Of a DNA stretch of 64,000 bases, positions 23,801 to 48,906 are shown piece by piece. Numbering within the stretch: position 1 is the stretch's first letter; each line of letters opens with the position of its first letter. A program made the position numbers and the translations under genes. The notes beneath the pieces were generated by a model that saw only the letters and a list, made by a program, of their open reading frames with translations, ran no database searches and was not told where the DNA came from. Source of the DNA: a virus; the IMG/VR virus record IMGVR_UViG_3300020446_000006, positions 1 to 64,000 of that record, one strand, 5' to 3'.

Positions 23801-25603
23801 TGATTGGTCAAAGCGATACTTATTACCTGGAACCATCTGAATAAATGGTGATTCCATGCCATTGACTGTGTACCCAAGTGAAGAACCCTGCCCTTCATAA
23901 CGATGCCCTTGAGTTTTTGAAGCAACTAAAACGGTAAATACTGTAGCATCAGAATCATGCACATACATAATTCTTTCAAGATTCTTAATACCTTCAGTAC
24001 TAATTGTTTCGTCAAAAAGATCGAGGACCTGTGAAGAATCAAGAACACTCGGCACATTTGAGAAGTTTGTGTAATTTAGATAGTAAGTTCCATCTTGTCC
24101 ATCAAGCTCATCCGCATTAACACCTAGAGCATCAATAGTTGCTTTATCAACTGTCGGTATCGAAGGTGTGCCTTGTAGATTGTTATAGTCAAGATAATGA
24201 GAAGCACTTTCACCATTCAGTGTAAATGCGTTAATGCCGCCAACCGTCTTAATATAAGCACTATCAACCGCATCACCGCTGACACGAGCATTTACATAAG
24301 CAGAGTCGACTGTCGATTCTAAAGATAACCAAGTACCCTCAAATCCTTTATTAAATACAAACTTATCGCCTGATGCTGCATATAGTAAAGTTGCATTTGC
24401 ACCTGCAATTGTAATACCCGCACCGTCTGCAGCAGCAGCGTTTGCAGCACTGTCTGCAAGAACTAAGTTCTTATCATTAAGACTTACTGTAGTTGAATTA
24501 ATGGTTGTGGTTGTACCTTCAACTTGAAGATTACCAAGAATTTGTACCGTACCAGAATCTGTGCCGACCCGAGCCGGGTCGATAATCATATTCGCAGGCC
24601 CAGCGATATAACCACCGACTGTTAGATTTGAATCAATAGTTAGACTACCGACCATTGAATCAGATTGATCGCTGCGTAAGAATTGTGTACTGTTACGTCC
24701 ATCAAGAGTATCTGCATTTACTCCTAAGGCATCTACAAATGCTTTATCAACATCTTGAGCGATTCTATTTGATACGTCGACAAGATCAAGTACAGCAGGT
24801 ACATTTTGTAGATTATTATAATCACGGTAATAACTGCCGTGCTGTCCGTCAAGCAGATCTGCATCGATACCACCTACAGTTTTAATATAATCAGAGTCTA
24901 CAATTGCTAGCACACCAGCAGAATCTACTGATCCACCACTAGTACGAGCATTAATATAAGCAGAGTCAATAATTGCAGTAACTTGTGCAGAATCCACCGT
25001 TGATACACGAGCATTCACGTATGCAGAATCGATAAGATTAATTGCATCAACACTATCAAGGAATGGAGCCTCTGCTACACGAGCAAGTACATATGCACTA
25101 TCAACTTTATCTTCAATTACATTGTTAATTGTAATTGTGACAGTATTACCAGAATCGTTAAGAGACGCGGCAATGTCTGAGTCTGTCCTTGCTTTTGTAT
25201 AATATAAGTTCGATCCTTCTGAAAGATCTGACGTTGATTTGGCAGCAAAGTCTGTACTAAAATCTGATGTGGTATAATGATCTGCTCTTGCGTTTACATA
25301 AGCAGAGTCGATTAAACCTTCGAGATATGATAAAGGAACACGAGCTTGTACGTAGGCAGAATCAACAAGATTTGTAACTTCGGCTGAATCTAATTGAGCT
25401 AGAGCAACAACTTCAACTGCAGCTGCGATCGCTTCGACACGCGCAGAATCTACGAATGCTTTGATATTATTACCGGTATCTTTATAGTAGATCTTTCCGT
25501 CTTCGAAGTTAATAGCGAGTTCGCCATACTCCAAATCACCTGCGACTGGTACCTTCCCTGCTACGGAAGATCTTTTAAGTAATACTTTTGGTGTCGTTGC
25601 CAT
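20819..25603 (-). CDS. Long modular tail fibre (DSAYVxAR, ADxLDG and NLYYT repeats, cupredoxin-like domain, six VYLNGILL modules)
   Basis: N-terminus LKRSSVAGKVP...GELAINFEDGKIYYK as in T4-like proximal fibres; many internal repeats. ATG at 25603 follows the upstream stop at 25606. Confidence 0.8.
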   Translation of the reverse strand: MATTPKVLLKRSSVAGKVPVAGDLEYGELAINFEDGKIYYKDTGNNIKAFVDSARVEAIAAAVEVVALAQLDSAEVTNLVDSAYVQARVPLSYLEGLIDSAYVNARADHYTTSDFSTDFAAKSTSDLSEGSNLYYTKARTDSDIAASLNDSGNTVTITINNVIEDKVDSAYVLARVAEAPFLDSVDAINLIDSAYVNARVSTVDSAQVTAIIDSAYINARTSGGSVDSAGVLAIVDSDYIKTVGGIDADLLDGQHGSYYRDYNNLQNVPAVLDLVDVSNRIAQDVDKAFVDALGVNADTLDGRNSTQFLRSDQSDSMVGSLTIDSNLTVGGYIAGPANMIIDPARVGTDSGTVQILGNLQVEGTTTTINSTTVSLNDKNLVLADSAANAAAADGAGITIAGANATLLYAASGDKFVFNKGFEGTWLSLESTVDSAYVNARVSGDAVDSAYIKTVGGINAFTLNGESASHYLDYNNLQGTPSIPTVDKATIDALGVNADELDGQDGTYYLNYTNFSNVPSVLDSSQVLDLFDETISTEGIKNLERIMYVHDSDATVFTVLVASKTQGHRYEGQGSSLGYTVNGMESPFIQMVPGNKYRFDQSNVTNSNHPIRFYYDAGKNDQYTTNVTTSGISAGQSGSYVEIEITDDTPSVLHYQCQNHGLMGNAIFVQTRNLTGFTTSNLSEGSNLYYTNARVESVVDSAYVAARAPSGGGTFGLAANTGTHTFNTATETLTFLGTTGQINAGIAANNVTLELDQNINSITSISFEGDSSNAYEVKLQAINPTADRTINLPNNSGTLALLSDISGGGGGVDSAATIALITATVDSDYVALREANSGGGGGGSTIIVQDEGSSLSTAATTLNFVGSGVSASGTGTTKTITINASGSGGSSGGDAANALDGFKYTATAGQTVFTDSDDNGSVLSYEKHLANLQVFLNGILLVETDDYTETDSSTLTLATGADSNDILQIFDHNAVTPASGVDSSATITIINQTIDSSYIATKIEDLTRGVLSVTKFIYEADSGQTLFTDSDKFGNVLSVSTDHIEVYLNGILLEDTTDFTATDSSITLAEAADSGYSLTVIETTGRVGRSTLFSNAYEFTADSGQTLFTGADDHGTNLNLATGISEVYLNGILLSEQNDYVATNTSITLNLAADSDDFLSIVNVVSNNIAGMNYREYKFTGYTGSAVLTGQGMSFGNNQVQVHKNGVLLSSTDYTTANGNSITITPTSISSDVYIVSVFTAANDRANAYYFTADSGQTNFVGLDDTGKEVVYSNTGSKLVYVNGILLAPTDFTASNGSSFTLNEAAAAGDDVQFIAFGDIVFDAGIQQPITRTQFEFTASPGQTAFSGTDNNGSNLEYNPGKIAVYLNGLLLSSSDFTATNSSSVTLTEAADSGDVLLVERFLGNSPLPGLDSNDMFTLVDSAYVAARLGAAAGFTISNEGTPLTVSATTLDFVGSGVVATGNGSGTKTITITAGLDSSQIISVVTPLADSIADSAINKRLTWTEAASSFIAVPGDRKIVNTKTSGKVITLQAGATLGDEVRIIDGYGNAATNNITIQSTQKILGSDSDLIININRAAIGLVYYNDSNGWILTEN

Positions 25604-25605
25604 CT

Positions 25606-27138
25606 TTAGTAAGTCCCGCAATCAATAGTTGCTATTTCTACCTGCCCTGCTGTAACTAAGAAGTCTTGAGAATCAAATGCAGCTACGCCTAAAGCAGACG
25701 AAGTGGATGCTACTCCAGCAATTGCTCCTGTTGCAGAACTATACGATATTCCGTTTGACGCAGTCAGCGCATGCTTTGCAGCGCTATCTGCTCTTGCGTC
25801 TGTATAATATAAGTTTGAACCTTCAGGTAATTGCCCAGTATTCGCATCACCTAAGTCTGAATCAAAATTGGCCTTAGAGTAAACTTGCTCAACATCAATA
25901 CTAAATCTACCTGCAGCCGAATCATATGTAAGATCTCCAGCAGCACTGAAATGAGATCTGACTTCGGTTGCACTTGGTCCTGTAAATGTAAATCTTCCGT
26001 TTGCAGAATCATATGTTAATGATCCATCTCCACCAACATCTACAACATTTAGAGCATTTCTTACTCGCTGTGTTGTGTGATATAGATTTGAACCTTCTGT
26101 AAGATCACTAGTAGTTTTCTGTGCAAAATCAGAATCAAATCCTAAATAGCGTCCACTGAATGTTGTTGTACTAATCGTGCCAGAAACATCGATGTTCGGC
26201 GCTAAGAATGTCTTATTTGCATGCCATGCATCGTTTGACGCCTTATAAAAGATATTTGCGCCGGCTCCGACTACATGAATGCCTGCAGAATCTGCAGCCG
26301 CAGGGTTTGCTGCGCCCGATGCCAATGTAATATTTTTATCGTCAACTTCAAGAGTCGTAGAATTAATTGTAGTAGTTGTACCATCAACCTGTAAATTACC
26401 TTGAATGATTAAAGTACCGGCTGTACCTGTAGGACTTGGATCAATCGTAATATCGCCGCTTGTTGAGACAATACTATTACCGTCAATTGTAATATTATCA
26501 ACTTGAAGTGATGATAGAGCAGTAACGTTCGAGTCAAGATGTATGTCGACTCTTGTGCCGGTTACTAGGTCTTGTAGCTTAGTGTGTATGTTAGTTGCAC
26601 CATATATCTGCAACTTTTCACCCATTGTAAGAACACCGGTGCCACTAGCGGTATTTCCATCGACGTCAAGAACGTTACGAGTATCTACATAATTTTTTGT
26701 AGCAGCATCTTGTGCACTTGAAGGATCTACAACATTTGATATTGTAGAAGTACTTGCATCAATTATGCCGCTTGATGGGTTTACTGTAAGATTGCCTGTA
26801 GCAGAGATCTCATTACCGTCGATACTTACATTATCTACATTTAGTATATCAATCTTACTATTTGCATCAGTAATAATTGCACTTGATGGTTTTAACTGAC
26901 CCTTAGGATGGTCCATCATGTCTGTGTAATATTTACCGCCAATTGTATGAATCGAGTTTGCAAAGCCGTTTGGCGAATCATTTCCACCTGCACCTATGAA
27001 AAGACGATCGCCACCTGCCGAATCACCGGCAGCATGAGTATAAGCAAGTTCTCCACTTTTTAATATATTATCTGATACATTAATAGTGGCTGTAGTACTA
27101 GATTGTTTAAGAATAAATTTAATATCTGTAGAAGACAT
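25606..27138 (-). CDS. Tail fibre protein
   Basis: GELAY...IGGKYYT N-terminus, QDAATKNYVD, GNLQVDGTTTTINST, EGSNLYYT repeats, C-terminal IDCGTY. Confidence 0.75.
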   Translation of the reverse strand: MSSTDIKFILKQSSTTATINVSDNILKSGELAYTHAAGDSAGGDRLFIGAGGNDSPNGFANSIHTIGGKYYTDMMDHPKGQLKPSSAIITDANSKIDILNVDNVSIDGNEISATGNLTVNPSSGIIDASTSTISNVVDPSSAQDAATKNYVDTRNVLDVDGNTASGTGVLTMGEKLQIYGATNIHTKLQDLVTGTRVDIHLDSNVTALSSLQVDNITIDGNSIVSTSGDITIDPSPTGTAGTLIIQGNLQVDGTTTTINSTTLEVDDKNITLASGAANPAAADSAGIHVVGAGANIFYKASNDAWHANKTFLAPNIDVSGTISTTTFSGRYLGFDSDFAQKTTSDLTEGSNLYHTTQRVRNALNVVDVGGDGSLTYDSANGRFTFTGPSATEVRSHFSAAGDLTYDSAAGRFSIDVEQVYSKANFDSDLGDANTGQLPEGSNLYYTDARADSAAKHALTASNGISYSSATGAIAGVASTSSALGVAAFDSQDFLVTAGQVEIATIDCGTY

Positions 27139-27747: not shown

Positions 27748-27755
27748 TATTTATA
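27748..27755 (-). promoter_or_regulatory. T4-type late promoter TATAAATA driving the fibre operon
   Basis: TATTTATA on +. Confidence 0.8.
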
Positions 27756-27773: not shown

Positions 27774-27784
27774 TATAATAAATA
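27774..27784 (+). promoter_or_regulatory. Late-type promoter AATAAATA (overlapping TATAAT) driving the enzyme cassette
   Basis: TATAATAAATA about 30 nt upstream of GTG 27814 (RBS AAGGAG); the same AATAAATA variant precedes gp20. Confidence 0.6.
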
Positions 27785-27813
27785 GTAATGCATGTCAACT
27801 CAAGGAGAAAAAA

Positions 27814-28668
27814 GTGGATAGACAAACACGTATCAAAAAGATGTTTTATGGTTGGGATGATGAAATGGATATTATGCGTGATATCCAAAAATGCCAAAGA
27901 AACTGGGATTACTCTAAAGAAGTACATCATGAAATTAGAGACTATCTATTATGGACAGCGTTAAATGCGCCATCAAAACAACATGAGGCTTATTACGATG
28001 TCTATTGGTCTACTGATCGCGACGTTATACAAGAGTGTTCTCGTTATACGTGGGGATGTACACACAGCCGAAATCCTCCTTCGACATGGAGAAATGCACA
28101 AGCAAATGCAAACATGTATATGCTTTTTGTTGCAAAAGAACCGGATACAAATCAAAACTGTAATGCAGATGGTACAGAGAAATCTAATAAATCTTCAGCT
28201 CGATGGGAAAATGCATATGTAAGTATCGGTATCGCAGTTGGATTAGTACTTAGAGCTGCCGCAAAATATGGATTCGCCACTGGTTGTAATAAAAGTCATG
28301 GCGATTTAAATGGTGATAAGTTTTGGGAAAAAAAATTAGGTATCTTAGAAGAAGTCGAAGCAGGTGAAAAAAAGATAGCATACGGTATTGGTATCGGATA
28401 TCCTAATGAACATCGACCTCGTTGGGAATCTGATGATCTTGAGTTGGCTTTAGGTGCTGGAAATGGTAGCAATTTGGCAACTGATACAAATCTTACAGAA
28501 AATGAAAAAGGTAAACCATACAGACATATTAAAATTATTAATGTCGCTGAACATGCAGGTGAAACTCTCTTAGATCCATATGGTAATAAGCACGAAATTC
28601 CTGATGTAGCTGAAATTAAAATTAATACTATGCGTAAAAGAAACATTGAGGCTATAGAAATAAAATGA
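27814..28668 (+). CDS. Nitroreductase-fold protein 1
   Basis: CQRNWD...ALNAPSKQH...YVSIGIAVG...AAKYGFATG...IGIGYP, the nitroreductase FMN-binding pattern. Confidence 0.7.
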   Translation: MDRQTRIKKMFYGWDDEMDIMRDIQKCQRNWDYSKEVHHEIRDYLLWTALNAPSKQHEAYYDVYWSTDRDVIQECSRYTWGCTHSRNPPSTWRNAQANANMYMLFVAKEPDTNQNCNADGTEKSNKSSARWENAYVSIGIAVGLVLRAAAKYGFATGCNKSHGDLNGDKFWEKKLGILEEVEAGEKKIAYGIGIGYPNEHRPRWESDDLELALGAGNGSNLATDTNLTENEKGKPYRHIKIINVAEHAGETLLDPYGNKHEIPDVAEIKINTMRKRNIEAIEIK

Positions 28669-29336
28669 GTGTGTATGACATTTTAAAAAAAAGAAAATAT
28701 GTACTAGATTACGAAACGCATGCAGAAATAGATAAAGAATTAATTATAGATCTTTTACAAAAAGCATGGAAAGTCACTCCTTCGAAAAATAATTTTATGC
28801 CTTATAAGGTTCATGTAATAGGACCAGAACGTAGAAAATTAAAAGAAAGTATTTTTTTAAAAAGTTTAAAACATGAAGGTGCAGCAGACAATATAGATGT
28901 TATTGAAAGATATGAAAACCGTGGAAAATTACCTAATTATAGAAATATTCGGTCATGTTCTTATCTTTTAATTTTTACGTTAAGACAAGAAACTGATCCA
29001 AATCCATTTCAAAAATGGTTATTTGAACAGGGACATAACTATCCTGCAATGCGTAATGTGGAAGAGTGTTATGGAGATGCGTTACTAGAAATGGGAATGT
29101 TTTCAACCGCCTTTGGAGCTATGTGTTTAGAACATGATATCGACATTGCTCCTGTTGGCTGTTATCCTAAAGATTTAAAGGATTGGTGGGATGTACCGTT
29201 TATAAAATACCCGCCAATAGGTTTACTAACGGTTGGGAAGGGAAAATATTACAGACAAAATCCTGCATTTCCTGGACGCGAAAAAGATGATTGGAAACCA
29301 AACTTTAGCAAAGTGGTTAATATAGAGAATATTTAA
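28665..29336 (+). CDS. Nitroreductase-fold protein 2
   Basis: LKKRKYV...AWKVTPSKNNFMPYKV...EMGMF...CLEHDID...LTVGK. Confidence 0.75.
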   Translation: MSVYDILKKRKYVLDYETHAEIDKELIIDLLQKAWKVTPSKNNFMPYKVHVIGPERRKLKESIFLKSLKHEGAADNIDVIERYENRGKLPNYRNIRSCSYLLIFTLRQETDPNPFQKWLFEQGHNYPAMRNVEECYGDALLEMGMFSTAFGAMCLEHDIDIAPVGCYPKDLKDWWDVPFIKYPPIGLLTVGKGKYYRQNPAFPGREKDDWKPNFSKVVNIENI

Positions 29337-30059
29337 ATGAGTGTGTATGATCTTTTTCAAACTCGACATCATGTACTGGAATATGCGCCAGAACCAGTAG
29401 ATGAGAGTTTACTAAATACTCTATTATGGAAAGCATGGAAGATAACACCTTCAAAAAGCAACGCTATGCCTTACAATGTAAATGTTTTAGGTCCAAAGGA
29501 TCAAATAGAAAAAAATAAGATTTATGATCAAGTTTCAGGGAATCACAAATTCTATGATGAGGTAGGACTTGATTACAATACTAAAGATAATCCTAAACTT
29601 CAAAAAGAATACAAATTTAAAGTTAATCCATTCTATGGACATGTAAAGAATAATTCACATTTGTTAGTATTTTCTTCAAGAGTTGCAAAACCAAATGCGT
29701 TTTATAAAGATACAATCTGGCGAGAAGCCCATTTTTTTGAACAGGCTGAAGAAGATCAGGTGACTGATATAGCTGAAAGTGTGAGTGTTGAATGCGGCTT
29801 TTTCGCAACACATCTTGCAGGTTTATGTAGAGAGCAAAACATCGATGTATCTTTTACCGCCTGTTTGCCAAAGAGCATAGACAAATGGAAGGCTTTTCCG
29901 TATTTATGGTATAACTATGAAAAGCAGACAGCAAAAATACATCTTATAATGAGCATCGGTTATGCCGAAAAATATAGATATGAATGGTTAACAGAAATTA
30001 GAAGAACTAAAGACGATATAAAACCAGAATTTACTGAGGTAGTGAAATTTATTAAATGA
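29337..30059 (+). CDS. Nitroreductase-fold protein 3
   Basis: QTRHHV...AWKITPSKSNAMPYNV...ECGFF...CREQNIDVS...MSIGYA; paralogue of the previous gene. Confidence 0.75.
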   Translation: MSVYDLFQTRHHVLEYAPEPVDESLLNTLLWKAWKITPSKSNAMPYNVNVLGPKDQIEKNKIYDQVSGNHKFYDEVGLDYNTKDNPKLQKEYKFKVNPFYGHVKNNSHLLVFSSRVAKPNAFYKDTIWREAHFFEQAEEDQVTDIAESVSVECGFFATHLAGLCREQNIDVSFTACLPKSIDKWKAFPYLWYNYEKQTAKIHLIMSIGYAEKYRYEWLTEIRRTKDDIKPEFTEVVKFIK

Positions 30060-30868
30060 TAAACGTTGTATGTACGAGTAAACCATGTGATGGTTTACTG
30101 TATTATAGTTATGAATATGCATCGCTGCTTGATGCAAAACTAATTATTATACCAAATCCTAAATTTACGGAACAAGACTATCTTAATTCAATTCAACACA
30201 AGTATATTCACTGTAAGAACGTTGAATTTGATTATTATGGTGGAAATGATATTACCCTTATTATGGGTAGAAGCATGCTTACACTAGCATATCGAGATTT
30301 TAAAAATTATTCTGATGACGCAAAGATGTCATTAATAGAGTTGTTTCGAAATCCACTGATATCTGTATATTCAAATAATCATCCTAATGAATATTCACTT
30401 GCACTTGAATTTTTTAAACCATCTCAAGTAACCGATCTTTGTGATCATGAAGTTTATTCAGATGGTGTTGGTGAAAACTTTATTAAGAGAATCAATTTTG
30501 ATATTTACAAAGAGTCTGTCGAAGATGTACAGTTCGAGCATCTATTTCTTGGTACAAATAACGAGTACTATCAAGCAGCACTCGATAACATGAAACCAGA
30601 TTCTCGTATTCTAGTTTATAAATATGTAGATGAAAAGAGTCTTGTAGTTCCTGTCGATAACATACTCGGCATGTTTAATACATATGTTTATACGAAGCCA
30701 TCGTTTGATCCTGCACCAAGATTATTGCAAGAAAGTATGTACTTTTCGAAGAAAGTATGTTATAATAGAGATAAAAATATAAAAGACGGCGGCAGTGTTT
30801 ACTTCAATCGTAAGATTGAAAAGCCGTCTATTGAGGTAATACAGAATGTGGCAAAGACAATACGATAA
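30056..30868 (+). CDS. Putative GT-B-like glycosyltransferase
   Basis: C-terminal FDPAPRLLQESMYFSK resembles the GT4-type E/D-x-x-P-x-x-x-x-E-x-M donor-binding motif; weak. Confidence 0.4.
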   Translation: MINVVCTSKPCDGLLYYSYEYASLLDAKLIIIPNPKFTEQDYLNSIQHKYIHCKNVEFDYYGGNDITLIMGRSMLTLAYRDFKNYSDDAKMSLIELFRNPLISVYSNNHPNEYSLALEFFKPSQVTDLCDHEVYSDGVGENFIKRINFDIYKESVEDVQFEHLFLGTNNEYYQAALDNMKPDSRILVYKYVDEKSLVVPVDNILGMFNTYVYTKPSFDPAPRLLQESMYFSKKVCYNRDKNIKDGGSVYFNRKIEKPSIEVIQNVAKTIR

Positions 30869-31877
30869 ATATGAAGACGCATATTTACAGATATTTGAAA
30901 ATGCGTTATCACAAAATCCAGAATCGAATGTAGAATTTTTAGAAAAAAACGTAAAGAAAGTTGCACAAAGAGAGTACGCAGTTGCATGTAATTCCGCGAC
31001 AGATGCTCTTATGTTTTCACTTGTGGCAAATGACATTGGTCCGGGTGATGAAGTACTTGTTACAAATTTTTCATGGATATCGACTGCGTCATGTATCGCC
31101 ATGGCAGGAGCAACTCCTGTCTTTTGTGATATTGATTTTGATACACGACATATCTCAATTGATAGTATCAAGAGAATGCAATCACCAAAAGTAAAGGCGA
31201 TTATATACACTCACCTCTTTGGCTCAATGTCAGATACTACAGAGATTGAACAGTGGTGTAAAGAATCAAACGTGCTCTTTATTGAAGATGCTGCACAATC
31301 GATAGGTTCAAGTTATAATGGCAAAGTTGCTGGAAGTATTGGCGATTGTAGTTCATATAGTTTTAATGCAAATAAAGTCATAAGCGGAATATCAGGTGGT
31401 GGCATGTTTATGACTGATAGTAAAGAAATGGCAGAAAAAGTAAAGAAGCTTAGGAAACACGGTAAGGATGATCGTGATGGTTATATTACTCTTGGTGTCA
31501 ATTCAAAAATGTATGTGCTAAATGCTATGATGATTGATTTCAGACTTAAACAATTAGAATCTGAAAGAGAACGCAGAAAAGAAATAGCAATGATATACGA
31601 TTCTATTTTAGATCAAACACACGAACAACCAGGCTTGATTCATAACTATCATAAATACACTTACCTGACAGATAAAAGAAATCTCTTAGATTTGCAGATA
31701 CATTATGATAGACCTTTATCGGCACATCCGATGTGGCAAGGTATTCATCATAGAGCAGATGATACACCAAATGCAAGAGAGGTAAGTCAGAAAATAGTAT
31801 CATTACCGATTGATGCGTTCATGACTGATAATGAGGCAAAAGATGTCGCAACCAAAATCTATAAAACAGTTGAATGA
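30846..31877 (+). CDS. DegT/DnrJ/EryC1/StrS PLP-dependent sugar aminotransferase
   Basis: NSATDAL, IGPGDEV, GATPVFCD, IEDAAQSIG, SFNANK (PLP lysine), GGGMFMTD, VSLPI. Confidence 0.93.
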   Translation: MWQRQYDKYEDAYLQIFENALSQNPESNVEFLEKNVKKVAQREYAVACNSATDALMFSLVANDIGPGDEVLVTNFSWISTASCIAMAGATPVFCDIDFDTRHISIDSIKRMQSPKVKAIIYTHLFGSMSDTTEIEQWCKESNVLFIEDAAQSIGSSYNGKVAGSIGDCSSYSFNANKVISGISGGGMFMTDSKEMAEKVKKLRKHGKDDRDGYITLGVNSKMYVLNAMMIDFRLKQLESERERRKEIAMIYDSILDQTHEQPGLIHNYHKYTYLTDKRNLLDLQIHYDRPLSAHPMWQGIHHRADDTPNAREVSQKIVSLPIDAFMTDNEAKDVATKIYKTVE

Positions 31878-32667
31878 AGAAAATTATCTAGCTATCGATT
31901 TTTATCTATCGAAGTCATGTAATAAATCTTGTCATTACTGCACTGCATGGACACTTGAGATGCGCAATCTCGATGTCGATATGGATTTTTTAAGTCGTAC
32001 TCTAGAATATTTTTCTCCGTACAAGGCACGCATACAGTTATTAGGCGGCGAACCAGGTCTTATTAAAAACCTAGATGAAGTTGTTGCTGAGATCAAGAAG
32101 CATAAGAATCTTGTACCATCTGTTCTATCAAATTCCTTTGTTCGTAAGCGTTATCCACATATGCTCGAAGACCCAGAGATTCTATATCAAGAACACTTAG
32201 TCTTAGATTTCTATGAAGATAAGATTGAGAAGCTCGGTAACTTTGATTTCTTTGAAGAGAACGATCTGAACAATTACAATATCATTATCATGACTCCAAA
32301 CTATTTTAAGTACCGAGAGAAATATGACTTATCGATTGTAGACCATAAGAATACACAGTTTAAGGCATTCAATTCTCGCTCACCTAATTGGACAGAAACA
32401 AAGCAAGCACCTGAGTTCGATCGTCGTATGTGCGCAGCATTTCCAAAAGTACCGGTTGTTGACTTCGAGCTTCAAAAGATTCGACACTGTAGTAAGAAGG
32501 TAATTAAAGGCTCTCGTCAATATGCAGTAACAAAAGAGAATATCGATAAGATGATGAACTTTGAATTGTTTCGTTTCGAAGAGTATTGTAAGAGGTGCAC
32601 AGAAGATATTGAAAAAAGATCGCACGATCAGATACTGAGGATAATGGAAGCTGGTGCAGTCATATGA
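31843..32667 (+). CDS. Radical SAM enzyme with C-terminal Cys cluster
   Basis: CNKSCHYC (CxxxCxxC), GGEP, and C-terminal C...HC...CxxC (SPASM/twitch-like). ATG 31843 has a GAGG RBS. Confidence 0.88.
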   Translation: MSQPKSIKQLNEENYLAIDFYLSKSCNKSCHYCTAWTLEMRNLDVDMDFLSRTLEYFSPYKARIQLLGGEPGLIKNLDEVVAEIKKHKNLVPSVLSNSFVRKRYPHMLEDPEILYQEHLVLDFYEDKIEKLGNFDFFEENDLNNYNIIIMTPNYFKYREKYDLSIVDHKNTQFKAFNSRSPNWTETKQAPEFDRRMCAAFPKVPVVDFELQKIRHCSKKVIKGSRQYAVTKENIDKMMNFELFRFEEYCKRCTEDIEKRSHDQILRIMEAGAVI

Positions 32668-33407
32668 GTAAAAAGTATTTGATAGCTTCTGGTTGCAGTT
32701 GGACTGATGCAAATTTTAGTTCAGAATTTGACCGGTCAATAGATTGTAGTTGGCCTAAATGGCCAGAAATACTAGCAGGCAAATTGTGTATGAAGTCAAT
32801 CAATTTAGGCTATAGTGGTTCAGGTCAGGAAGGAATATACTCTAGAGCACTAGACAAGATTTCTTCATTTGATCCAAAAGACATTGGACTTGTTATCGTT
32901 GGATGGTCACAGTGTCAAAGAAGAGATTTTGAATATGAATTAATGCATGACAAAGACGAATCTCTTTGTTGGTCAAATGAAAGAGTCGACCCTAAGGGAG
33001 ATCTATATTATTATATTCGAAGAACTCTTAGGTATATGTACAGTCTACAACAGGTCTGTGAAAGCTTAAATATACCATATAAACAATTTCAAATGATACC
33101 TTTATTTACACATTATATCTACCAAGCACGTGAGTATGGTATTAACTTTGATCATACAATTGGACATTTACGAAAAGCTATGCCTAATAGAATAGATGCT
33201 GTTGGCTATTTGGTGGAGTCACCTTATTGGGATTTAATTAACAAAGAGAATTTTATAGGATGGCCGTTAATAGATGAGGGAAATGGATTCAATATTCAAG
33301 ATAAATTTGTAAAAAATGATTTAGATTTGACTGTATCTAAAGAAGATGTACATCCTAACGAAAAAGGTCACAGGTTAATAGCAGAAAAAATTTATGAATA
33401 TCTTTAG
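32664..33407 (+). CDS. SGNH/GDSL-like hydrolase or acyltransferase
   Basis: ASGCSWT (block I), NLGYSGSG, DVHPNEKGH (DxH). Confidence 0.75.
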   Translation: MSKKYLIASGCSWTDANFSSEFDRSIDCSWPKWPEILAGKLCMKSINLGYSGSGQEGIYSRALDKISSFDPKDIGLVIVGWSQCQRRDFEYELMHDKDESLCWSNERVDPKGDLYYYIRRTLRYMYSLQQVCESLNIPYKQFQMIPLFTHYIYQAREYGINFDHTIGHLRKAMPNRIDAVGYLVESPYWDLINKENFIGWPLIDEGNGFNIQDKFVKNDLDLTVSKEDVHPNEKGHRLIAEKIYEYL

Positions 33408-34884
33408 TATTGCACTCGGCCCACATGATCAAAATACATATGATGGCTCTTTTCATAATCAAATAGAACGATTTAGTAGAAAAAAGCACAACGTACCATG
33501 GCATCATGACGTGTATCCACATCATTCTGAATTGACAAGAATGAACCGTGATGATAACAGATACATGATGAAGTTTTATAATGAGTATTGGAAACCAGAA
33601 GATCATGAAATCTTTTGTTTTACCACAACAGTCGGTGGTATGAAGATGCTTCGAAACGGTAATCAAAACATTGATCAAGATTTTTTAGATTTTAAACCAA
33701 AAAAACTGTGGGATTATTTTCGAAAAGATAACATATACTATATCGATCATCATCAGTCGCATGCAGCATATGCCTTCTTATCTTCTTGCTTTACAGAGTC
33801 AGATATCTTATCGATTGACGGTCGAGGCTGGCATTATAACTGCGTCTTCTTTGATAAGAACGGAAACATGACAGATCTATCTGATAAGATGGGTATCGGT
33901 ATACTTTGGGATTATTTTTCGAAAGCAGTCGGGTTCGGTCCTCTTGGTGCTGGAAAGTTAATGGGTCTTGCTGCACATGGCAGTTATTCTCCTGAATTTC
34001 ATATGATTATTGATTACTATTCGAATAATAATTTTAATTTTCCTGAGTTTGATATATCGAAGTTTAAACAAGAAGACATCGCGTATACGCTACAGTATGC
34101 AACTCAAGAATTAGTTAATGAACATGTGATACCTTTACAGTCATGTGATAATATATGTGTTGCTGGTGGCGTGGCATACAATGGCTATATGAATGAAGAG
34201 TTTACAAAGTACTACAGTGGTGTACATGTACCACCTGCACCAGGAGATGAAGGACAATCACTTGGCACTTATATGCATGCCGATTATGTTCTAAATAAAA
34301 ATAAACATGTGCCGAATGTGTATGCTGGAAAAGAATATACATTCGATGAAGGTGATGAGATTACTTCTCGAGAAGTTGCAGAAGCAATCGCAAATGGTAA
34401 AATTGTCGGTTGGTTTAACGGCAAATCCGAATCAGGTAATCGAGCACTCGGCAATCGAAGTATACTTGCAGATCCTCGTAATCCGAATATCAAAGACATT
34501 ATTAACCATACGATAAAACAAAGAGAAGATTTTAGACCATTTGCTCCAGCAGTACTTGAGCATCATGCACAAACATTCTTTGACACAAATCAGCCAAGTC
34601 CTTATATGTCTCGTATCATGCCGGTAAAATCAGATAAAATACCGGGTGTAACACATCTTGATAACACTGCGAGAATACAGACCGTAAGCCGTATACAAAA
34701 TGAAAATTTCTATAGACTCATTGAAGACTTTTATCAATATACCGGCATGCCGATGTTATTGAATACGAGTTTTAATTGTAAAGAGCCGATAGTTGAAACG
34801 CCTGAAGATGCGATCAACACATTTAACAGAACTAAACTTGACATGTTGGTAATTAATGGACGTAGTGTGCGTAAAATGGGGTGA
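33394..34884 (+). CDS. O-carbamoyltransferase (NodU/CmcH/TobZ family)
   Basis: DHHQSHAAYAF, IDGRG, GKLMGLAA, AGGVAYN, GDEGQSLG, RALGNRSILADP, RPFAP, LNTSFN. Confidence 0.93.
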   Translation: MNIFSIALGPHDQNTYDGSFHNQIERFSRKKHNVPWHHDVYPHHSELTRMNRDDNRYMMKFYNEYWKPEDHEIFCFTTTVGGMKMLRNGNQNIDQDFLDFKPKKLWDYFRKDNIYYIDHHQSHAAYAFLSSCFTESDILSIDGRGWHYNCVFFDKNGNMTDLSDKMGIGILWDYFSKAVGFGPLGAGKLMGLAAHGSYSPEFHMIIDYYSNNNFNFPEFDISKFKQEDIAYTLQYATQELVNEHVIPLQSCDNICVAGGVAYNGYMNEEFTKYYSGVHVPPAPGDEGQSLGTYMHADYVLNKNKHVPNVYAGKEYTFDEGDEITSREVAEAIANGKIVGWFNGKSESGNRALGNRSILADPRNPNIKDIINHTIKQREDFRPFAPAVLEHHAQTFFDTNQPSPYMSRIMPVKSDKIPGVTHLDNTARIQTVSRIQNENFYRLIEDFYQYTGMPMLLNTSFNCKEPIVETPEDAINTFNRTKLDMLVINGRSVRKMG

Positions 34885-35530
34885 CAAGTTTAGTCACGAG
34901 CATGTCAATCGATTGTATCGAATGGTATGTAAAAACTTTCATACTGATTTTAGATTTGTATGTCATACAGATAATCCTGAAGGGATACATAATGACGTAC
35001 ACATTATACCTTTGCCAGACTATGATCTCGAAAAGTGGTGGTGGAAATTAGCGCTATTCGAAAACATTTCAGAAACTCAAATATATTTAGATTTAGATGT
35101 CATAATACAAAAAGACTTTACACATTTTCAAGATTATGTCGTAGAAGATAAATTATGTTTAGTAAAAGCATATTGGAAACCATATGTAAGTGATGTAAAG
35201 TTTGAATTCGATGTCGATATCAATTCATCTATTATGATATGGAAAGGCGATCTTCGACATATATGGAAAGATTACGATGTAGAATACTGCAAATTTAAAT
35301 ATGAAGGAATAGATAGATATCTTTACTATGACAAAGGTGAACATTTAGTGTATATACCAGAAGGTGAATTATATTCTCGTAGATATGGTTTAGATTGGGA
35401 AAACTTTAATTTATTTGGGCTCGAAGATAAATTATACAAAGACGAAGACAAAACAATCTGTATCTTTGATGGGTGGAAATTAAGATTTGGAGATGAGGCA
35501 TATGATGGATTCGAAGAATACTATAATTGA
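34856..35530 (+). CDS. GT-A glycosyltransferase-like protein
   Basis: VVCVKWGDKF...VNRLYRMV, WWKLALF, YLDLDV (DxD), INSSIMIW. Confidence 0.75.
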   Translation: MDVVCVKWGDKFSHEHVNRLYRMVCKNFHTDFRFVCHTDNPEGIHNDVHIIPLPDYDLEKWWWKLALFENISETQIYLDLDVIIQKDFTHFQDYVVEDKLCLVKAYWKPYVSDVKFEFDVDINSSIMIWKGDLRHIWKDYDVEYCKFKYEGIDRYLYYDKGEHLVYIPEGELYSRRYGLDWENFNLFGLEDKLYKDEDKTICIFDGWKLRFGDEAYDGFEEYYN

Positions 35531-36191
35531 TCCTATATATTTTAATGTCTGGTGGGAAGCAATACAAAAAGGCTATGACGCTAAGACTTTGTTGTATAGT
35601 ATAGGCCCTGATCAGTTAGAATCAAAAAACCATTTGTTTAAATTGTTAACAACACCATTGCCTGGAAAAAGAGAATACTGTCCTGCTACAGAATTATATT
35701 ACAAAAAAGATCTACATATACAGATTTATGGCGGCTGGTTTGGATATCCTTTAATTGACATGCTTGTTGATACCTTTTCAAATATATCTAGAATTACTAA
35801 TATCGATATAGACTCGAAAGCTTTAGATCTTTGTAGGAAATTTACTGTGGAAAAAAATCTAAGTGATATAGTATTTTTTAAAGAAAGAAATGTTGCTGAT
35901 ATTATTGAGACATCACATAATAAAGACAGAGACATTCGACTTGTAATTAACACATCATCTGAACATATGCCCGATTTACCTGTATTGATACAAAATAAAA
36001 CATATACAGATAATTGTGTCTTTGCGCTACAAAGTAATAATATGTTTCATGTTGTAGATCAACATATAAATTGTTCTAACAGTTTAAACGAATTTGTAGA
36101 GAAAACAGGACTGACAAAAATATTTGTTGCTGACACATATAAAATGCAGAATGGTTATGAGAGATATACTGTTATAGGAAATCATGAATAG
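35487..36191 (+). CDS. Class I SAM-dependent methyltransferase-like protein
   Basis: IYGGWFG (motif I-like), NIDID, VINTSSEHM, ALQSNN; start codon uncertain. Confidence 0.6.
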   Translation: MEMRHMMDSKNTIIDPIYFNVWWEAIQKGYDAKTLLYSIGPDQLESKNHLFKLLTTPLPGKREYCPATELYYKKDLHIQIYGGWFGYPLIDMLVDTFSNISRITNIDIDSKALDLCRKFTVEKNLSDIVFFKERNVADIIETSHNKDRDIRLVINTSSEHMPDLPVLIQNKTYTDNCVFALQSNNMFHVVDQHINCSNSLNEFVEKTGLTKIFVADTYKMQNGYERYTVIGNHE

Positions 36192-37029
36192 AACAATCAT
36201 AAGTCTTTATATTGACATACCAAAAGAAAACCTGGTATCTCATCATGAATCAAAACTGAAGTTTAACGATAACCACGCCTGGCTCGTAGATAAACAAGAA
36301 GAGTATGCAGATAAAATCGGTGTAGATTTTTCTCATTTCGAATATGAAGATGGCTATGAGGAATATCGTGATTGGTTTCAAAAAGAATATCCTGAAGTTT
36401 CTGAATATAACATAGTAAATTTCTTTAAGATCAAATTACTATATGATATGACTGAGTTATATGATGAGATTCTGTATCTTGACATTGATGTGATTCCTGT
36501 AACAAATGAAAACTTCTTTGATGTGTTTGATTTAAACAAAGGATTCGCCATACTGACAGGAACTGCAAGATCGCAAAGAGCATGGATTAATCCACTAACA
36601 GAGGCTGTAGTAGGCAGACATGGAGTAAGATCTCCTTTAGCAAAATATTGGAATACCAAATTAATGTTATCGATGGAAGGTCATAGTAGAGATTCTGAAG
36701 TATTCAATACAGGTATTATCGGCATTACTAGTAAGCAACTTAAAGAACTTGACTATTTTTCAGAATTTAGATCATTACTTGATTATATGACAGAGATACA
36801 AAACAATAGTGAGATACCCGATAACCTCAGAAAGCTGTGTGGTTACGATAACGAGACGATATGGGGCTACAAAACTTTACTTAAAAATCTTTCTTATCAG
36901 GAGCTCGGTGAGTATTGGCATGTGTTTATGGATAACCATAGCTTTGTACCAGAAAAAGCAAAGTTGGTGCACTGTGTAAATAAAGATTTTGATTATGTGA
37001 GAAACTGGTGTGAAAAGAATAATATTTAG
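36184..37029 (+). CDS. GT-A glycosyltransferase-like protein
   Basis: YDEILYLDIDVIP (DxD), VFNTGIIG, DNET, VHCVNK. Confidence 0.75.
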   Translation: MNRTIISLYIDIPKENLVSHHESKLKFNDNHAWLVDKQEEYADKIGVDFSHFEYEDGYEEYRDWFQKEYPEVSEYNIVNFFKIKLLYDMTELYDEILYLDIDVIPVTNENFFDVFDLNKGFAILTGTARSQRAWINPLTEAVVGRHGVRSPLAKYWNTKLMLSMEGHSRDSEVFNTGIIGITSKQLKELDYFSEFRSLLDYMTEIQNNSEIPDNLRKLCGYDNETIWGYKTLLKNLSYQELGEYWHVFMDNHSFVPEKAKLVHCVNKDFDYVRNWCEKNNI

Positions 37030-37606
37030 CATATGGCAAGACACAGACTGGCGTGACTATAAAGATCTGTTAGTAAACAAGCAACGAGAATACGCAGAGT
37101 TTTGTGATGCCGATTATCATTGTATCGAGTATGACAGCTTTGAGTTTAGTCGATTACAGTTCGAAAAACTTAACTGGGCAGATCATTATTTAGATTTTTA
37201 TGATGAAGTATTATATCTCGATTTAGATGTAATACCTCGAAAGAACATGTCATTCTTTGAAAAACATGATCTCAATACATTTTGTGTTCATTATACAATG
37301 AAGCCTGATTGGAAGATTAAAGCGAAAAACGATGCGCTAGGCTATCAAGGTAAGAATAAGATTGCAAATACAGGTGTTTTTGGTTTAAATCAAAATCTTA
37401 AGGGTATGCTAACAAAGGAACATAACTTCGATAACAACGAAGTTTTTGTATCATACCTAATTGAAAAGGATAAAATCCCTTGCACTGAAATTTCAGGTGC
37501 GTGGAACTTTATCCTTGATAAAAATTATCGTAAGTATAGTGAAGCTCACTATTTCTTACATGTATCTAATAAAGATTTTATTTCCTACCCGCTAGAGCGA
37601 TACTAA
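37010..37606 (+). CDS. GT-A glycosyltransferase-like protein (paralogue of previous)
   Basis: YDEVLYLDLDVIP, IANTGVFG, NNEV, LHVSNK. Confidence 0.72.
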   Translation: MKRIIFSIWQDTDWRDYKDLLVNKQREYAEFCDADYHCIEYDSFEFSRLQFEKLNWADHYLDFYDEVLYLDLDVIPRKNMSFFEKHDLNTFCVHYTMKPDWKIKAKNDALGYQGKNKIANTGVFGLNQNLKGMLTKEHNFDNNEVFVSYLIEKDKIPCTEISGAWNFILDKNYRKYSEAHYFLHVSNKDFISYPLERY

Positions 37607-39029: not shown

Positions 39030-39707
39030 TTATGCTACTGTTGGATCGTTACTCGTAGATAAAAAATATCCGTCTAATACTATAGTTCCGGTTTCATCTT
39101 TTACTGTAAATCGCTTTGCATTATCAAGTTCATATCGATCGCTATCCATAATTAATTTTGTAACTTCTAAATTTGTTATGGTTGCACTATCAATCACTGC
39201 GCTATCGATATCTGCAAACCCAGCTGTCAAACGATTTACTCTTGCCGAATCAATTGCCAAAGATGTAATTGTTGCATTTGAAATTGTGGCGCTATCAATA
39301 GTTAGAATTGCTCCTGGATCTACGCCGATACTATCGACATTAATTGTTGCAAATCTTGCACTATCTGCAGTCATCAGTCCGGTTACGTCTAGATTCCGAA
39401 TAGTCGCTGAGTCTATCGTAGCACTGTCTGCTGTGAGAGTACCAACTCGAAGTCTTTTAAAGGTTGCAGAATCTCCGTCAAATCCTGTAACTAGCAATGT
39501 GCCTGGAGGAGTACCGAATAGTTTATTGTTAATACTATCAAAACTTATAGCCAACTGATTCATAGCAGAAACTAAGTTTGAATCTGAATTTAGAAAAAAG
39601 GCAGCATCTAAATCATCAAGATCGCCCATAAAATCAGACATGAGATTTGTCTTGGCCATAAAGGTGCCAATTGCATCTACGAGATCTACGTGTATTTTTC
39701 TAGCCAT
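39030..39707 (-). CDS. Fibre/whisker-like protein with DSATI repeats
   Basis: N-terminus paralogous to the next gene; repeated (I/A)DSA(T/R)I units. Confidence 0.65.
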   Translation of the reverse strand: MARKIHVDLVDAIGTFMAKTNLMSDFMGDLDDLDAAFFLNSDSNLVSAMNQLAISFDSINNKLFGTPPGTLLVTGFDGDSATFKRLRVGTLTADSATIDSATIRNLDVTGLMTADSARFATINVDSIGVDPGAILTIDSATISNATITSLAIDSARVNRLTAGFADIDSAVIDSATITNLEVTKLIMDSDRYELDNAKRFTVKDETGTIVLDGYFLSTSNDPTVA

Positions 39708-39718
39708 TTTGTATTCCT

Positions 39719-40540
39719 TTAGATACTATCTATATCGAGTTGGATAGCCGCAAAATAATTTTCTGTACTTGTTGAATCAGTTAATAAGAAAGGCCTTGCG
39801 TGTTGAAATGTAATCGGTCCTTGAGAATCATTTAAAGTCAATCGTTTAACTCCTGTTGTACCGATTGTCGCCTTTGTAATATTAACACCTGAATCGCCAC
39901 CACTATCCGATATAAACTGACCAATAGTAATTTTACTTAATACTAATGCACTGTCAACTGTAACATCTTCACCTTTCATTGACAAATTTTTAAATCTTAT
40001 AGTACTAGTACTATCAAGAGCAGTAAGCCTTCCTATGACTCCGCTGTCTCCAACATACAAGCGAGTCATAGACATACTGTCTGGATAATTATCTAATTCT
40101 ATTACAGTTAAATTTCTAAATCTGGTACTGTCAGAGAAATAATCATGACTGATACCACCATCAGAATCACCGAACCATAAATTTGCTGCTTGCCCTTGAA
40201 AATCACCGGGACCTGGCATAGCGCTATCATAATTGTATAAAGACCTAACTGTAATTTTATCAAACTTGCCAGAGTCTGCACCGATTTTTGCTTTAAATCC
40301 AGTGATCTTTTCGGTACCATTAATTAAGCCATCAAGTATGTTTTTAAGATTATCAGCAAAGAGATTCATGCCGCTGACGAGATTTGAATCTCGATCAATT
40401 AGACCTGAATAAGGTGGATCTCCAGGATCAAATGTAGTATCAAGATCATCTAGATCTCCGATATAATCGGACATCTCGTTGACTTTTTGTCTCCATACGT
40501 CAATTGTATTTGCTAAATTGATTGTGACTTTACGTGCCAT
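39719..40540 (-). CDS. Fibre/whisker-like protein, DS-rich
   Basis: MARKVTINLANTIDVWRQKVNEM..IGDLDDLD...NLVSGMN fibre N-terminus. Confidence 0.65.
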   Translation of the reverse strand: MARKVTINLANTIDVWRQKVNEMSDYIGDLDDLDTTFDPGDPPYSGLIDRDSNLVSGMNLFADNLKNILDGLINGTEKITGFKAKIGADSGKFDKITVRSLYNYDSAMPGPGDFQGQAANLWFGDSDGGISHDYFSDSTRFRNLTVIELDNYPDSMSMTRLYVGDSGVIGRLTALDSTSTIRFKNLSMKGEDVTVDSALVLSKITIGQFISDSGGDSGVNITKATIGTTGVKRLTLNDSQGPITFQHARPFLLTDSTSTENYFAAIQLDIDSI

Positions 40541-47670: not shown

Positions 47671-48906
47671 TTAAGTACTAATTGCGGCGCCAAGCGCAAT
47701 ACGCTTGTAAGAACCTGCATCGCTATCAAAAACCGCAAGACATGGATTACCTGATGCGCCATTTGATACGAAAATTAATTTACCATGTTCACCTGTTGGA
47801 ACTGTATTAACTGTGTAATTTCGAAGATCAACTTCAACTGCACGCGCTTTTACATAATCAGAATCAACTGTAGCAGGTATATCATCGGCAGCAATCATAT
47901 CTCTCTTAATTGAGAACCATCCTTGATCATCGTATAAATTAAATCGATTTGAATCCTTATGATAAGATATTGATCCCTTACCTCTGAATTTAGACAAGTT
48001 AATGGTTGAGGTAAGACCAGCAGTATTGACTGTAGGTACTGCTAATGTTCCTGTATTATTAGTTGAATCAAATCCAAAATTAAATACGGTTTGATTTGTA
48101 ACCAGTTCACTTGTTACAATCTCATCAACAGTGGCAAGTTGAATTGTGTTACCACCAAACAGCAAGCCTCCGCCATTTGTAGAAGCATAGCTTCCTGTTC
48201 TGTCCGGACCGGTAAGAAATCCTGCACCAACAAAGAATCCGTTTGATGAATCTATAGAAACGTTATTTTCGCCTAAAGAAACCGGTTGTGAGAACGTAAA
48301 GTTTGTTCCATCAAATCCAAGTCTTTCGCCTGCAAGATGAATTGTAGTACCAGAAAGATACAGGTCTTTCCACTTAAAGTTTGAATCACCTAAGTCGTAT
48401 GTGCTATCGACAGATGGAACAATGTGGCCTGCATGTGCTGTGAGGTTTGGTGCATCAACTCTTAAATTGACATATGCAGAATCGACAATTAAAGCTACTT
48501 CGGCAGAATCAACAGAATTAGATTGAATAAGTGTAAGAGTACTGGCAGAATCAAATGCTGTACCAGTAAGCAGTGAAATATAAGTAGAATCAACAATACT
48601 TGTAATGTCAGCTGTAAGAGCGACAGTACCTGAACTATCAGGCAATACAATTAAATTATCACCAGTCGGATCGATTACACCAAGTGATGTTTCATGTGAG
48701 TCTGCTGTAACACCTTCGAATACAATGACCTTTGTTCCAAAGGCGATACCGTCTAGACCGCCTGCAGAACCAGATGCAACTTGTAATGCCGCAACATCTG
48801 TATACAGCTCGTCGAAGTTGTCATTAATTTTAATCGCACCAGTCCGGAGATCATCACCAGTTCCATCATTACCGGATGTGCCTATGTCGATAATTTGTCT
48901 TGCCAT
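47671..48906 (-). CDS. Baseplate wedge / fibre connector with gp9/gp10-type N-terminus
   Basis: IDIGTSGNDGTGDDLRTGAIKINDNFDELY is the gp9/gp10 N-terminal motif. Confidence 0.75.
   Translation of the reverse strand: MARQIIDIGTSGNDGTGDDLRTGAIKINDNFDELYTDVAALQVASGSAGGLDGIAFGTKVIVFEGVTADSHETSLGVIDPTGDNLIVLPDSSGTVALTADITSIVDSTYISLLTGTAFDSASTLTLIQSNSVDSAEVALIVDSAYVNLRVDAPNLTAHAGHIVPSVDSTYDLGDSNFKWKDLYLSGTTIHLAGERLGFDGTNFTFSQPVSLGENNVSIDSSNGFFVGAGFLTGPDRTGSYASTNGGGLLFGGNTIQLATVDEIVTSELVTNQTVFNFGFDSTNNTGTLAVPTVNTAGLTSTINLSKFRGKGSISYHKDSNRFNLYDDQGWFSIKRDMIAADDIPATVDSDYVKARAVEVDLRNYTVNTVPTGEHGKLIFVSNGASGNPCLAVFDSDAGSYKRIALGAAIST

Follow-up and report, generated by a model that had tools for sequence, protein, structure and literature searches.

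The 64-kb stretch of viral DNA analyzed here (hereafter the window) is the start of a 78-kb IMG/VR contig, record IMGVR_UViG_3300020446_000006, with an estimated completeness of ~47%, and carries, antisense amid its tail-fiber and baseplate genes, a cassette of 12 plus-strand open reading frames (ORFs; c01 to c12, positions 27814-37606) that is the subject of this study. Each junction between consecutive ORFs overlaps or abuts, the flanking genes are minus-strand structural genes, and the GC content is 0.33-0.36 in the cassette versus 0.38-0.41 in the flanks. PHROG and Pfam matches place the cassette in a T4-type structural block that includes a major head protein, a sheath, gp6-, gp8- and gp9/10-like baseplate proteins, a gp14-type neck protein, VrlC-like proteins and tail fibers. 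The capsid protein shares 59-69% identity with its counterparts in Phage C48C1, the Pelagibacter phages HTVC008M and Mosig and the Methylophilales phage Melnitz, all Kyanoviridae, and, to judge from these proteins, the source is an uncultured marine T4-like myovirus of the pelagimyophage/cyanomyophage kind. Within the structural block, the cassette sits between the gp14-type neck gene and the VrlC-like genes, and its neighbors, all on the minus strand, encode fiber-assembly, fiber, gp8-, gp9/10- and gp6-like baseplate, and VrlC-like proteins (Table 1).

Domain profiles, sequence motifs and predicted folds together support, at the level of protein families, a coherent operon for sugar building and tailoring. 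The first protein, c01, matches Pfam PF00881 weakly, and its AlphaFold model (predicted local distance difference test score, pLDDT, 68) retrieves iodotyrosine deiodinase and NADH oxidases in Foldseek searches at E ~1e-9; its homologs fill more than 670 metagenomic clusters, many of them labeled nitroreductase. Most of these metagenomic homologs (P0001-P0120) are 415-427 residues long versus 284 in the window, where the extra ~120-140 residues are missing. The paralogs c02 and c03 share 31% identity, and their family profile matches nitroreductases in the PDB at E 2e-5. The model of c04 (pLDDT 89.5) finds 31 PDB matches at E<=1e-3, mostly GT1, GT4 and OGT enzymes, with template modeling scores of 0.3-0.55 overall and, for the GT1/GT4/OGT matches, probabilities of ~1 and scores of 0.4-0.55, and on the strength of this fold c04 is probably a glycosyltransferase (GT), albeit unusually small for the GT-B class. 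The MoaA-like label of its Mosig homolog would make it a radical S-adenosylmethionine (SAM) enzyme instead, an assignment ruled out by the absence of a CxxxCxxC motif together with the GT-B-like fold. Single-sequence and profile searches of the PDB with c01, c04 and c11 gave nothing usable.

The central part of the operon is better anchored in known families. The pyridoxal phosphate (PLP)-dependent aminotransferase c05 matches PF01041 at E 1.7e-76 over residues 26-338, carries the PLP-binding lysine motif SFNANK and has PseC and LegC as its best NCBIfam matches, both under their equivalog cut-offs. In c06, the radical SAM motif C30-x3-C34-x2-C37 (CxxxCxxC) is invariant in 15 homologs, as are four more cysteines, C201, C220, C253 and C256, which may bind an auxiliary Fe-S cluster; the match of c06 to BtrN is weak (E 0.075) and confined to the N-terminal part. 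The accessory protein c07 shows weak GDSL matches and a typical SGNH block V, and is absent from the related contigs G004 and G001. Both family domains are found in c08, a Kae1-like N-terminal domain (PF02543, E 1.8e-17) and a YrdC-like C-terminal domain (PF16861, Carbam_trans_C, E 9e-66), and its closest solved relative is TobZ (E 5e-48). The Mosig homolog of c10 is labeled methyltransferase, while c11 scores 26.7 bits against PF01501 (cut-off 24.3) with its DxD motif at D100-I-D102. Finally, none of the 12 proteins has a transmembrane segment (maximal Kyte-Doolittle 19-residue mean <=1.45). A preliminary description of this DNA, made from the letters alone, had reported a tightly coupled operon antisense among fiber and baseplate genes and had named a family for each product; the junctions and flanks bear out the former, and all the family assignments held, that of c10 as weakly methyltransferase-like. 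Fold prediction, which it had recommended for the enzymes, was run on c01 and c04 and returned the nitroreductase and GT-B-like folds.

Table 1. Genes and promoter elements of the cassette and its structural surroundings, in window coordinates (DS, Asp-Ser dipeptides, observed versus expected)
Feature	Position	Strand	Description
TATAAATA late-promoter motif	27748..27755	-	Leftward fiber-assembly/fiber operon; back-to-back with AATAAATA
Cassette promoter region	27774..27784	+	TATAAT (27774-27779) overlapping AATAAATA (27777-27784); 30 nt before the GTG start
c01	27814..28668	+	FMN nitroreductase-fold protein, 284 residues
c02	28665..29336	+	Nitroreductase-like; c03 paralog
c03	29337..30059	+	Nitroreductase-like; c02 paralog
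c04	30056..30868	+	Compact GT-B-like protein, two Rossmann-like domains, 270 residues; conserved core member
c05	30846..31877	+	DegT/PseC/LegC-like PLP sugar aminotransferase
c06	31831..32667	+	Radical SAM enzyme
c07	32664..33407	+	SGNH/GDSL-like hydrolase or acyltransferase; accessory
c08	33394..34884	+	TobZ/NodU-type O-carbamoyltransferase
c09	34856..35530	+	Phage-specific GT-A, PHROG glycosyltransferase, DxD
c10	35487..36191	+	Rossmann methyltransferase/spermine-synthase-like, weak match (E 0.004)
c11	36184..37029	+	GT8 family glycosyltransferase, DxD
c12	37010..37606	+	GT8-like, 198 residues, shorter c11 paralog (E 1e-9), DxD present
gp14-type neck protein	14763-15959		PF11649 over residues 13-177
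1600-residue tail fiber	20819..25621	-	45 DS vs 13.4; 12 copies of DSx(Y/F)(V/I/L)
Fiber-assembly protein gene	27357-27701	-	Left neighbor of the cassette
Two small fiber-like paralogs	39030..40540	-	Densest DS arrays: 12 vs 2.5 and 14 vs 3.0
VrlC-like phrog_358 proteins	40740-46300	-	Two overlapping ORFs, 1328 and 527 residues
gp9/10-like baseplate-fiber connector	47671..48906	-	13 DS vs 3.8

The operon starts behind AATAAATA, back-to-back with the fiber-operon late promoter TATAAATA, an arrangement already noted in the preliminary description and confirmed here. TATAAATA is the motif of T4 late promoters; in the window it precedes 11 gene starts, nearly all of them of structural genes, at distances of 6-60 nt, and AATAAATA departs from this type of motif by one mismatch. 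The same kind of element recurs in relatives: TATAAATA stands 13 nt upstream of the cassette in Mosig, 40 nt upstream of the first gene of the corresponding island in G001 and G002 and 26 nt upstream of it in L048, and also precedes the reduced cassettes of L202 and L204-L206 described below, while G004 has CATAAATA 28 nt upstream of the island's first gene and L017 and L018 have CTAAATA upstream of theirs. Wherever the true island start is visible, as in the window and seven informative relatives, a late-type motif is found 13-40 nt before the first gene; given the background frequency of the motif in these loci, the chance of one such motif in a 45-nt interval is ~0.012. Its retention across relatives makes conserved late-type transcription a reasonable inference, and the motif evidence suggests that the cassette is most likely transcribed from a T4-type late promoter. 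At the other end, the 3' end of c12 overlaps a convergent minus-strand gene (37578-38078), with which the fiber-like genes on this side begin, by 29 nt (37578-37606); no terminator was found between the two, the nearest hairpin (37424-37444) falling within c12.

The location recalls the host recognition cluster of pelagimyophages and cyanomyophages, a hypervariable island between gp14 and VrlC that holds fibers together with GT8 and radical SAM cassettes (Zaragoza-Solas 2020, PMC7029224). The window cassette likewise lies between gp14 and VrlC, combines fibers, GT8 and radical SAM genes, varies between relatives and comes from the same phage group; by gene content and position it belongs to a known island type already outlined in SAR11 phages.

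To follow the cassette beyond the window, we compared it with cultured and uncultured genomes. Megablast against GenBank phages gave no match, and protein-level comparison identified in phage Mosig EXVC030M (MT647606, Mosig_00082-00094) matches to all 12 cassette proteins at 25-63% identity, c12 matching only Mosig's c11 homolog; the Mosig cassette adjoins a tail fiber, differs in gene order and contains extra radical SAM genes. A search with c01 retrieved 47 IMG/VR loci, 45 of which contain further cassette genes beside c01, in shuffled order and drawn from c02/c03, c04, c05, c06, c08 and c10, often with c09 and c11. The core enzymes of the cassette are 48-63% identical to those of Mosig or G001 and thus better conserved than the baseplate proteins (28-34%). 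The capsid protein of G001, a 145-kb contig, is 33% identical to that of the window, yet G001 has c01, c04, c05, c06, c08 and c10, and no GT-A. G004, whose structural proteins are 44-58% identical, carries a cassette at the same site without c01 and c07, and across relatives the island ranges from 4 to more than 13 genes. In the sister contig G007 (L191:1-8319), the structural genes are 95-96% identical and c06, c08, c09, c11 and c12 93-97%. There, c05 is 48% identical, c04, c07 and c10 are 68-81% identical, and ~0.9 kb of extra DNA separates c04 from c05, a mosaic that points to recombination within the operon.

Among 185,579 species genomes, only three hits were obtained, the short contigs L193, L194 and L195 of metagenome-assembled genomes (MAGs), each with the phage cassette. 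These contigs are filed under Candidatus Pelagibacter, Rhodobiaceae and Gammaproteobacteria MAGs. Two of them, L194 and L195, also hold homologs of the flanking phage structural genes. All three are phage contigs misbinned with bacteria. By these comparisons, the module is phage-specific, horizontally mobile and internally mosaic. In Mosig (L002:554-6807) and G001 (L043:1800-9950), a second enzyme cluster stands back-to-back with the module; it comprises Asp/Arg beta-hydroxylases and aminotransferases in both, with a TauD dioxygenase, an FMN reductase and an acetyltransferase in Mosig, and a class IV aminotransferase, a B12-radical SAM enzyme, a SAM methyltransferase and an IMPDH-like gene in G001. 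The window has no such cluster.

We tentatively propose that the cassette is a mobile operon of soluble phage enzymes, housed in the host recognition cluster, for generic virion (fiber) decoration that is not directed at Asp-Ser sequons. In this scheme, the GT-B-like c04 would put a sugar on the acceptor; a keto-sugar could come from c06, the radical SAM enzyme, and/or from a dehydratase of the host, and the DegT enzyme c05 would aminate it; the TobZ-like c08 would O-carbamoylate the sugar at the expense of carbamoyl phosphate and ATP; c10 might methylate it and c07 add or remove an acyl group; the three nitroreductase-fold flavoproteins could carry out redox tailoring; and the GT-A enzymes c09, c11 and c12 would extend the glycan. 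The solubility of all 12 proteins makes an intracellular acceptor, such as virion proteins, possible, and the late motif, the phage-only range and the transfer between lineages with presumably different hosts favor an acceptor that travels with the phage. On these grounds the virion proteins, and the fibers in particular, are the acceptor that we judge most likely, although our preference falls short of even confidence.

Several considerations weigh against this proposal. The chemistry is inferred from enzyme families, and the order of its steps is tentative. The cassette yielded no genes for nucleotide-sugar synthesis. Since the host recognition cluster is a hotspot for insertions in general, adjacency to fiber genes may be meaningless. 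Furthermore, a sigma70-like promoter, TATACA-N16-TATAAT with a perfect -10 and a 4/6 -35 element, overlaps the late motif, which by itself therefore leaves timing unfixed and early transcription possible; the late timing put forward in the preliminary description thus stands as regards a late-type motif conserved in relatives, and is softened by this overlapping promoter. GT8 enzymes are, moreover, the classical soluble transferases of the lipopolysaccharide (LPS) or lipooligosaccharide (LOS) core, and neither GT8s nor GT25s need a Wzx/Wzy system of their own. Finally, the describers of the island favor modification of the host O-chain (PMC7029224).

These last points lead to an alternative in which the enzymes remodel the host surface, altering LPS/LOS or capsule from the cytoplasmic face and thereby blocking superinfection or re-adsorption of progeny. 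This would agree with the published reading of the glycosyltransferases in the pelagimyophage host recognition cluster (PMC7029224) and with the LPS gene clusters of cyanomyoviruses (PMC3037559, PMC12801897). GT8s are typical LPS-core transferases, and soluble GT8/GT25-type modification of the core is conceivable. The same contig also holds a second glycan cluster outside the structural region, with two GT25s, a GT8, a sulfotransferase and an FkbM-type methyltransferase. This minus-strand cluster lies near the gp32 gene at L104:10575-15794, that is, at positions 70575-75794 of the contig and beyond the window, and may itself be a better fit than the cassette for modifying host LPS/LOS. Against a host-surface role of the cassette stand the conservation of its late-type promoter motif, the confinement of the module to phages together with its movement between very different phage lineages with presumably different hosts, and the lack of any membrane, flippase or ligase component. 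Indeed, Gtr-type and O-antigen systems rely on integral membrane parts (the GtrA flippase, GtrB and a serotype-specific glycosyltransferase, or Oac), none of which is in the cassette; with no membrane protein among its products, O-antigen modification of the Gtr type is excluded. We consider host-surface remodeling as a whole possible, if somewhat unlikely.

The solubility of the enzymes would also suit a cytoplasmic target such as DNA, and phage glycosyltransferases, PLP enzymes and radical SAM enzymes do act in known base hypermodifications, with mom of phage Mu expressed late. Glycosylation and/or carbamoylation of hydroxymethylated bases would be compatible with late expression, and a phage enzyme of the TobZ family makes 5-carbamoyloxymethylcytosine (PMC8670742). 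However, PF00303 (ThyA/deoxycytidine monophosphate [dCMP] hydroxymethylase) is absent from the window's own contig, from the complete Mosig genome and from G001, G002 and G003, with control genomes positive, and a C5 DNA methylase was found neither in the complete Mosig genome nor in the other contigs. A search for Tet/JBP was negative as well, which is weak evidence since the same search was negative in every control genome. Carbamoyltransferases on unmodified contigs are, furthermore, those flanked by glycosyltransferases (PMC8670742). In agreement with the preliminary description, which had preferred protein over DNA as the substrate, the missing hydroxymethylase and methylase make DNA hypermodification highly improbable.

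A further alternative is a soluble small molecule, aminoglycoside- or nucleoside-like, or another cytoplasmic target, made or modified late in infection. The combination of a DegT enzyme, a small radical SAM enzyme with extra cysteines, a TobZ-type carbamoyltransferase, a GT-B enzyme and a methyltransferase resembles an aminoglycoside-tailoring set, the modules of Mosig and G001 adjoin the Asp/Arg hydroxylase and aminotransferase clusters described above, and antibiotic synthesis genes in a cyanomyovirus have been a subject of speculation (PMC12801897). Yet the cassette has no scaffold-forming enzyme (e.g., 2-deoxy-scyllo-inosose synthase) and no export or self-resistance gene, and its resemblance to BtrN is restricted as stated above. 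We regard such a product as improbable.

The preliminary description had assigned the cassette a far more specific role, in which its glycosyltransferases install a tailored amino-sugar glycan on the serines of Asp-Ser (DS) sites of outer virion proteins, over the whole particle. The underlying enrichment is real: 11 fiber-like or peripheral proteins of the window contain 144 DS dipeptides versus 48.4 expected (observed/expected ratio, O/E, 2.97; z 13.7), by far the strongest excess of any dipeptide (next z 4.7), with Asp-Thr (DT; O/E 0.49) and Glu-Ser (ES; 0.32) depleted and Ser-Asp (SD) at expectation. Four of these proteins are individually significant. The enrichment does not extend to the whole particle, however, as 12 core virion proteins hold 31 DS versus 33.8 expected (O/E 0.92); the capsid, portal, tube/baseplate core and VrlC proteins show no excess, and the sheath one of at most ~2-fold. 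In the gp14-type neck protein, all nine DS sites fall in a C-terminal extension (residues ~198-331). The split of the VrlC-like gene into two ORFs is shared with G004, G007 and L201-L206.

The DS sites are also conserved. Among gp9/10-like orthologs of 46-79% identity, 10 of the 13 sites are kept, and 11 of 13 down to 68% identity, in an alignment of five sequences with 18% of residues invariant, and the use of both serine codon families indicates that selection acts on the protein. Many of the sites, on the other hand, lie in (V/I)DS(A/D)Y(V/I)xAR-type motifs or in repeats of ~15 residues, positions -1 and +4 being hydrophobic, a pattern compatible with a helix-cap or turn role, and a purely structural role would explain it equally well. 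No relative of the long fiber's DS-repeat segment was found in the PDB, and no related loci for positions 39719-40540. A tblastn search with the DS-repeat segment led to the tail fiber of the Pelagibacter siphophage Kolga, which has no DS enrichment, motif copies or cassette and was set aside as an unsuitable control.

Glycosylation of serines next to aspartate has precedents. In Bacteroidota, exported proteins are O-glycosylated in the periplasm at the sequon D-(S/T)-(A/I/L/V/M/T), and staphylococcal SdgA and SdgB glycosylate serines in Ser-Asp repeats; virion proteins fold in the cytoplasm. The window fibers resemble neither pattern: Ser-Asp repeats raise SD and DS alike, whereas SD in the window fibers is at expectation, and the depletion of DT, together with a permitted next residue at about half of the DS sites, contradicts a sequon of the Bacteroidota type, which the preliminary description had cited. 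The six commonest +1 residues at 134 DS sites include 46 Ala and 8 Thr, and the long fiber has 21 matches to the three-residue sequon (DS or DT) against its 45 DS.

What weighs most against the cassette installing its glycan on these sites, however, is the comparison across T4-like relatives, in which DS frequency and cassette presence, expected to go together, show no coupling. The cassette occurs without DS excess in Mosig (O/E 0.83) and G001 (1.00), neither of which has a protein at p<1e-3, and none of the 47 c01-bearing IMG/VR loci (45 with further cassette genes) has a DS-enriched ORF; the cassette-free HTVC008M, Melnitz, C48C1 and Syn9 have DS O/E values of 0.85-0.95. DS enrichment instead marks a single clade, made up of the window phage, G007, G006, L108, G004/G005/L197, L116 and L202-L206. 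The giant fibers of L202-L206 carry 30-52 DS versus 11-18 expected, and their islands at the same site (e.g., L203:7898-10378) are reduced to a small uncharacterized ORF, a different radical SAM gene, a c09-like GT-A (45-47% identity) and a c10-like gene, with no DegT, c06, carbamoyltransferase, GT-B-like or GT8 gene. Since the cassette occurs without DS excess and DS excess without the amino-sugar core, the two are decoupled in both directions and the model of a tailored amino sugar on DS serines is left unsupported. Its consistency with the soluble enzymes and the late motif notwithstanding, we now hold that model to be improbable.

One element does accompany the enrichment. All DS-clade contigs long enough to show the island have a plus-strand cassette at the site with a c09-type GT-A (45-96% identical), and only this enzyme and the c10-like protein are constant in every such island, c09 being the sole constant glycosyltransferase. 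The conserved fiber DS serines of the clade might accordingly be O-modification sites served by the c09-type GT-A, with the variable amino-sugar, carbamoyl and GT8 genes diversifying the glycan between strains, which would amount to a sequon-directed, strain-variable glycan coat on host-recognition fibers. However, the DS phages form one clade, so that the co-occurrence of c09 and c10 with DS represents a single evolutionary event rather than independent evidence, and we give this version only a slim chance, as we do DS-directed modification in general. From the sequence comparisons, the DS excess is better described as a separate lineage trait under purifying selection, which either has a structural role or depends on some agent outside the amino-sugar core.

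Few viruses of the ocean are as abundant as the T4-like phages that infect SAR11 and related marine bacteria, and the hosts open to these phages are determined by their fiber islands. A module for sugar tailoring that sits in such an island and is conserved, mobile and apparently late makes a good candidate for the first system of virion glycosylation among T4-like phages, and as Mosig is in culture, the question of its acceptor is open to direct test. The Asp-Ser sequon idea, by contrast, fails the comparative test, and what it leaves over is a clade-specific, site-conserved, ~3-fold Asp-Ser excess in fiber proteins, with Asp-Thr depleted, that is genuine and unexplained.

Known systems share parts of this picture. 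The closest counterpart, the Mosig cassette, lies beside a tail fiber and behind a late motif as in the window, whereas its fibers, unlike those of the window, are not enriched in DS. The phage 5-hydroxymethylcytosine carbamoyltransferase, which is found together with a ThyA-like dCMP hydroxymethylase and with deaminases (Yang et al. 2021, PMC8670742), has its TobZ/NodU family in common with c08, but neither the window nor Mosig has the hydroxymethylase or deaminases, and c08 is flanked by glycosyltransferases; the MetaGPA supplementary tables contain no DegT, nitroreductase or GT8 entries. Aminoglycoside tailoring (BtrN, DegT, TobZ) shares the combination of enzyme classes, but the window lacks a cyclitol-forming enzyme, and that pathway offers no counterpart of the nitroreductase-fold trio.

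Virus-encoded glycosylation is established for the fibrils of Megavirinae, whose rare amino sugars are clade-specific (PMC10117803, PMC8456856), and has been described for mycobacteriophage capsids and tails (Freeman 2023, as cited in PMC12801897). As in the window, genes for sugar aminotransferases, glycosyltransferases and methyltransferases lie among or close to the structural genes of these viruses; their glycans have been demonstrated on virions, and their enzymes are not orthologous to those of the window cassette. Furthermore, no carbamoyltransferase, radical SAM or nitroreductase set of the kind present in the window is described for them. Relative to the host recognition cluster itself, for which PMC7029224 provides the outline of the island, the window adds the 12-gene composition, folds for two uncharacterized proteins, a conserved late-type motif, a mobile core confined to phages and, in the fibers, a DS enrichment specific to one lineage.

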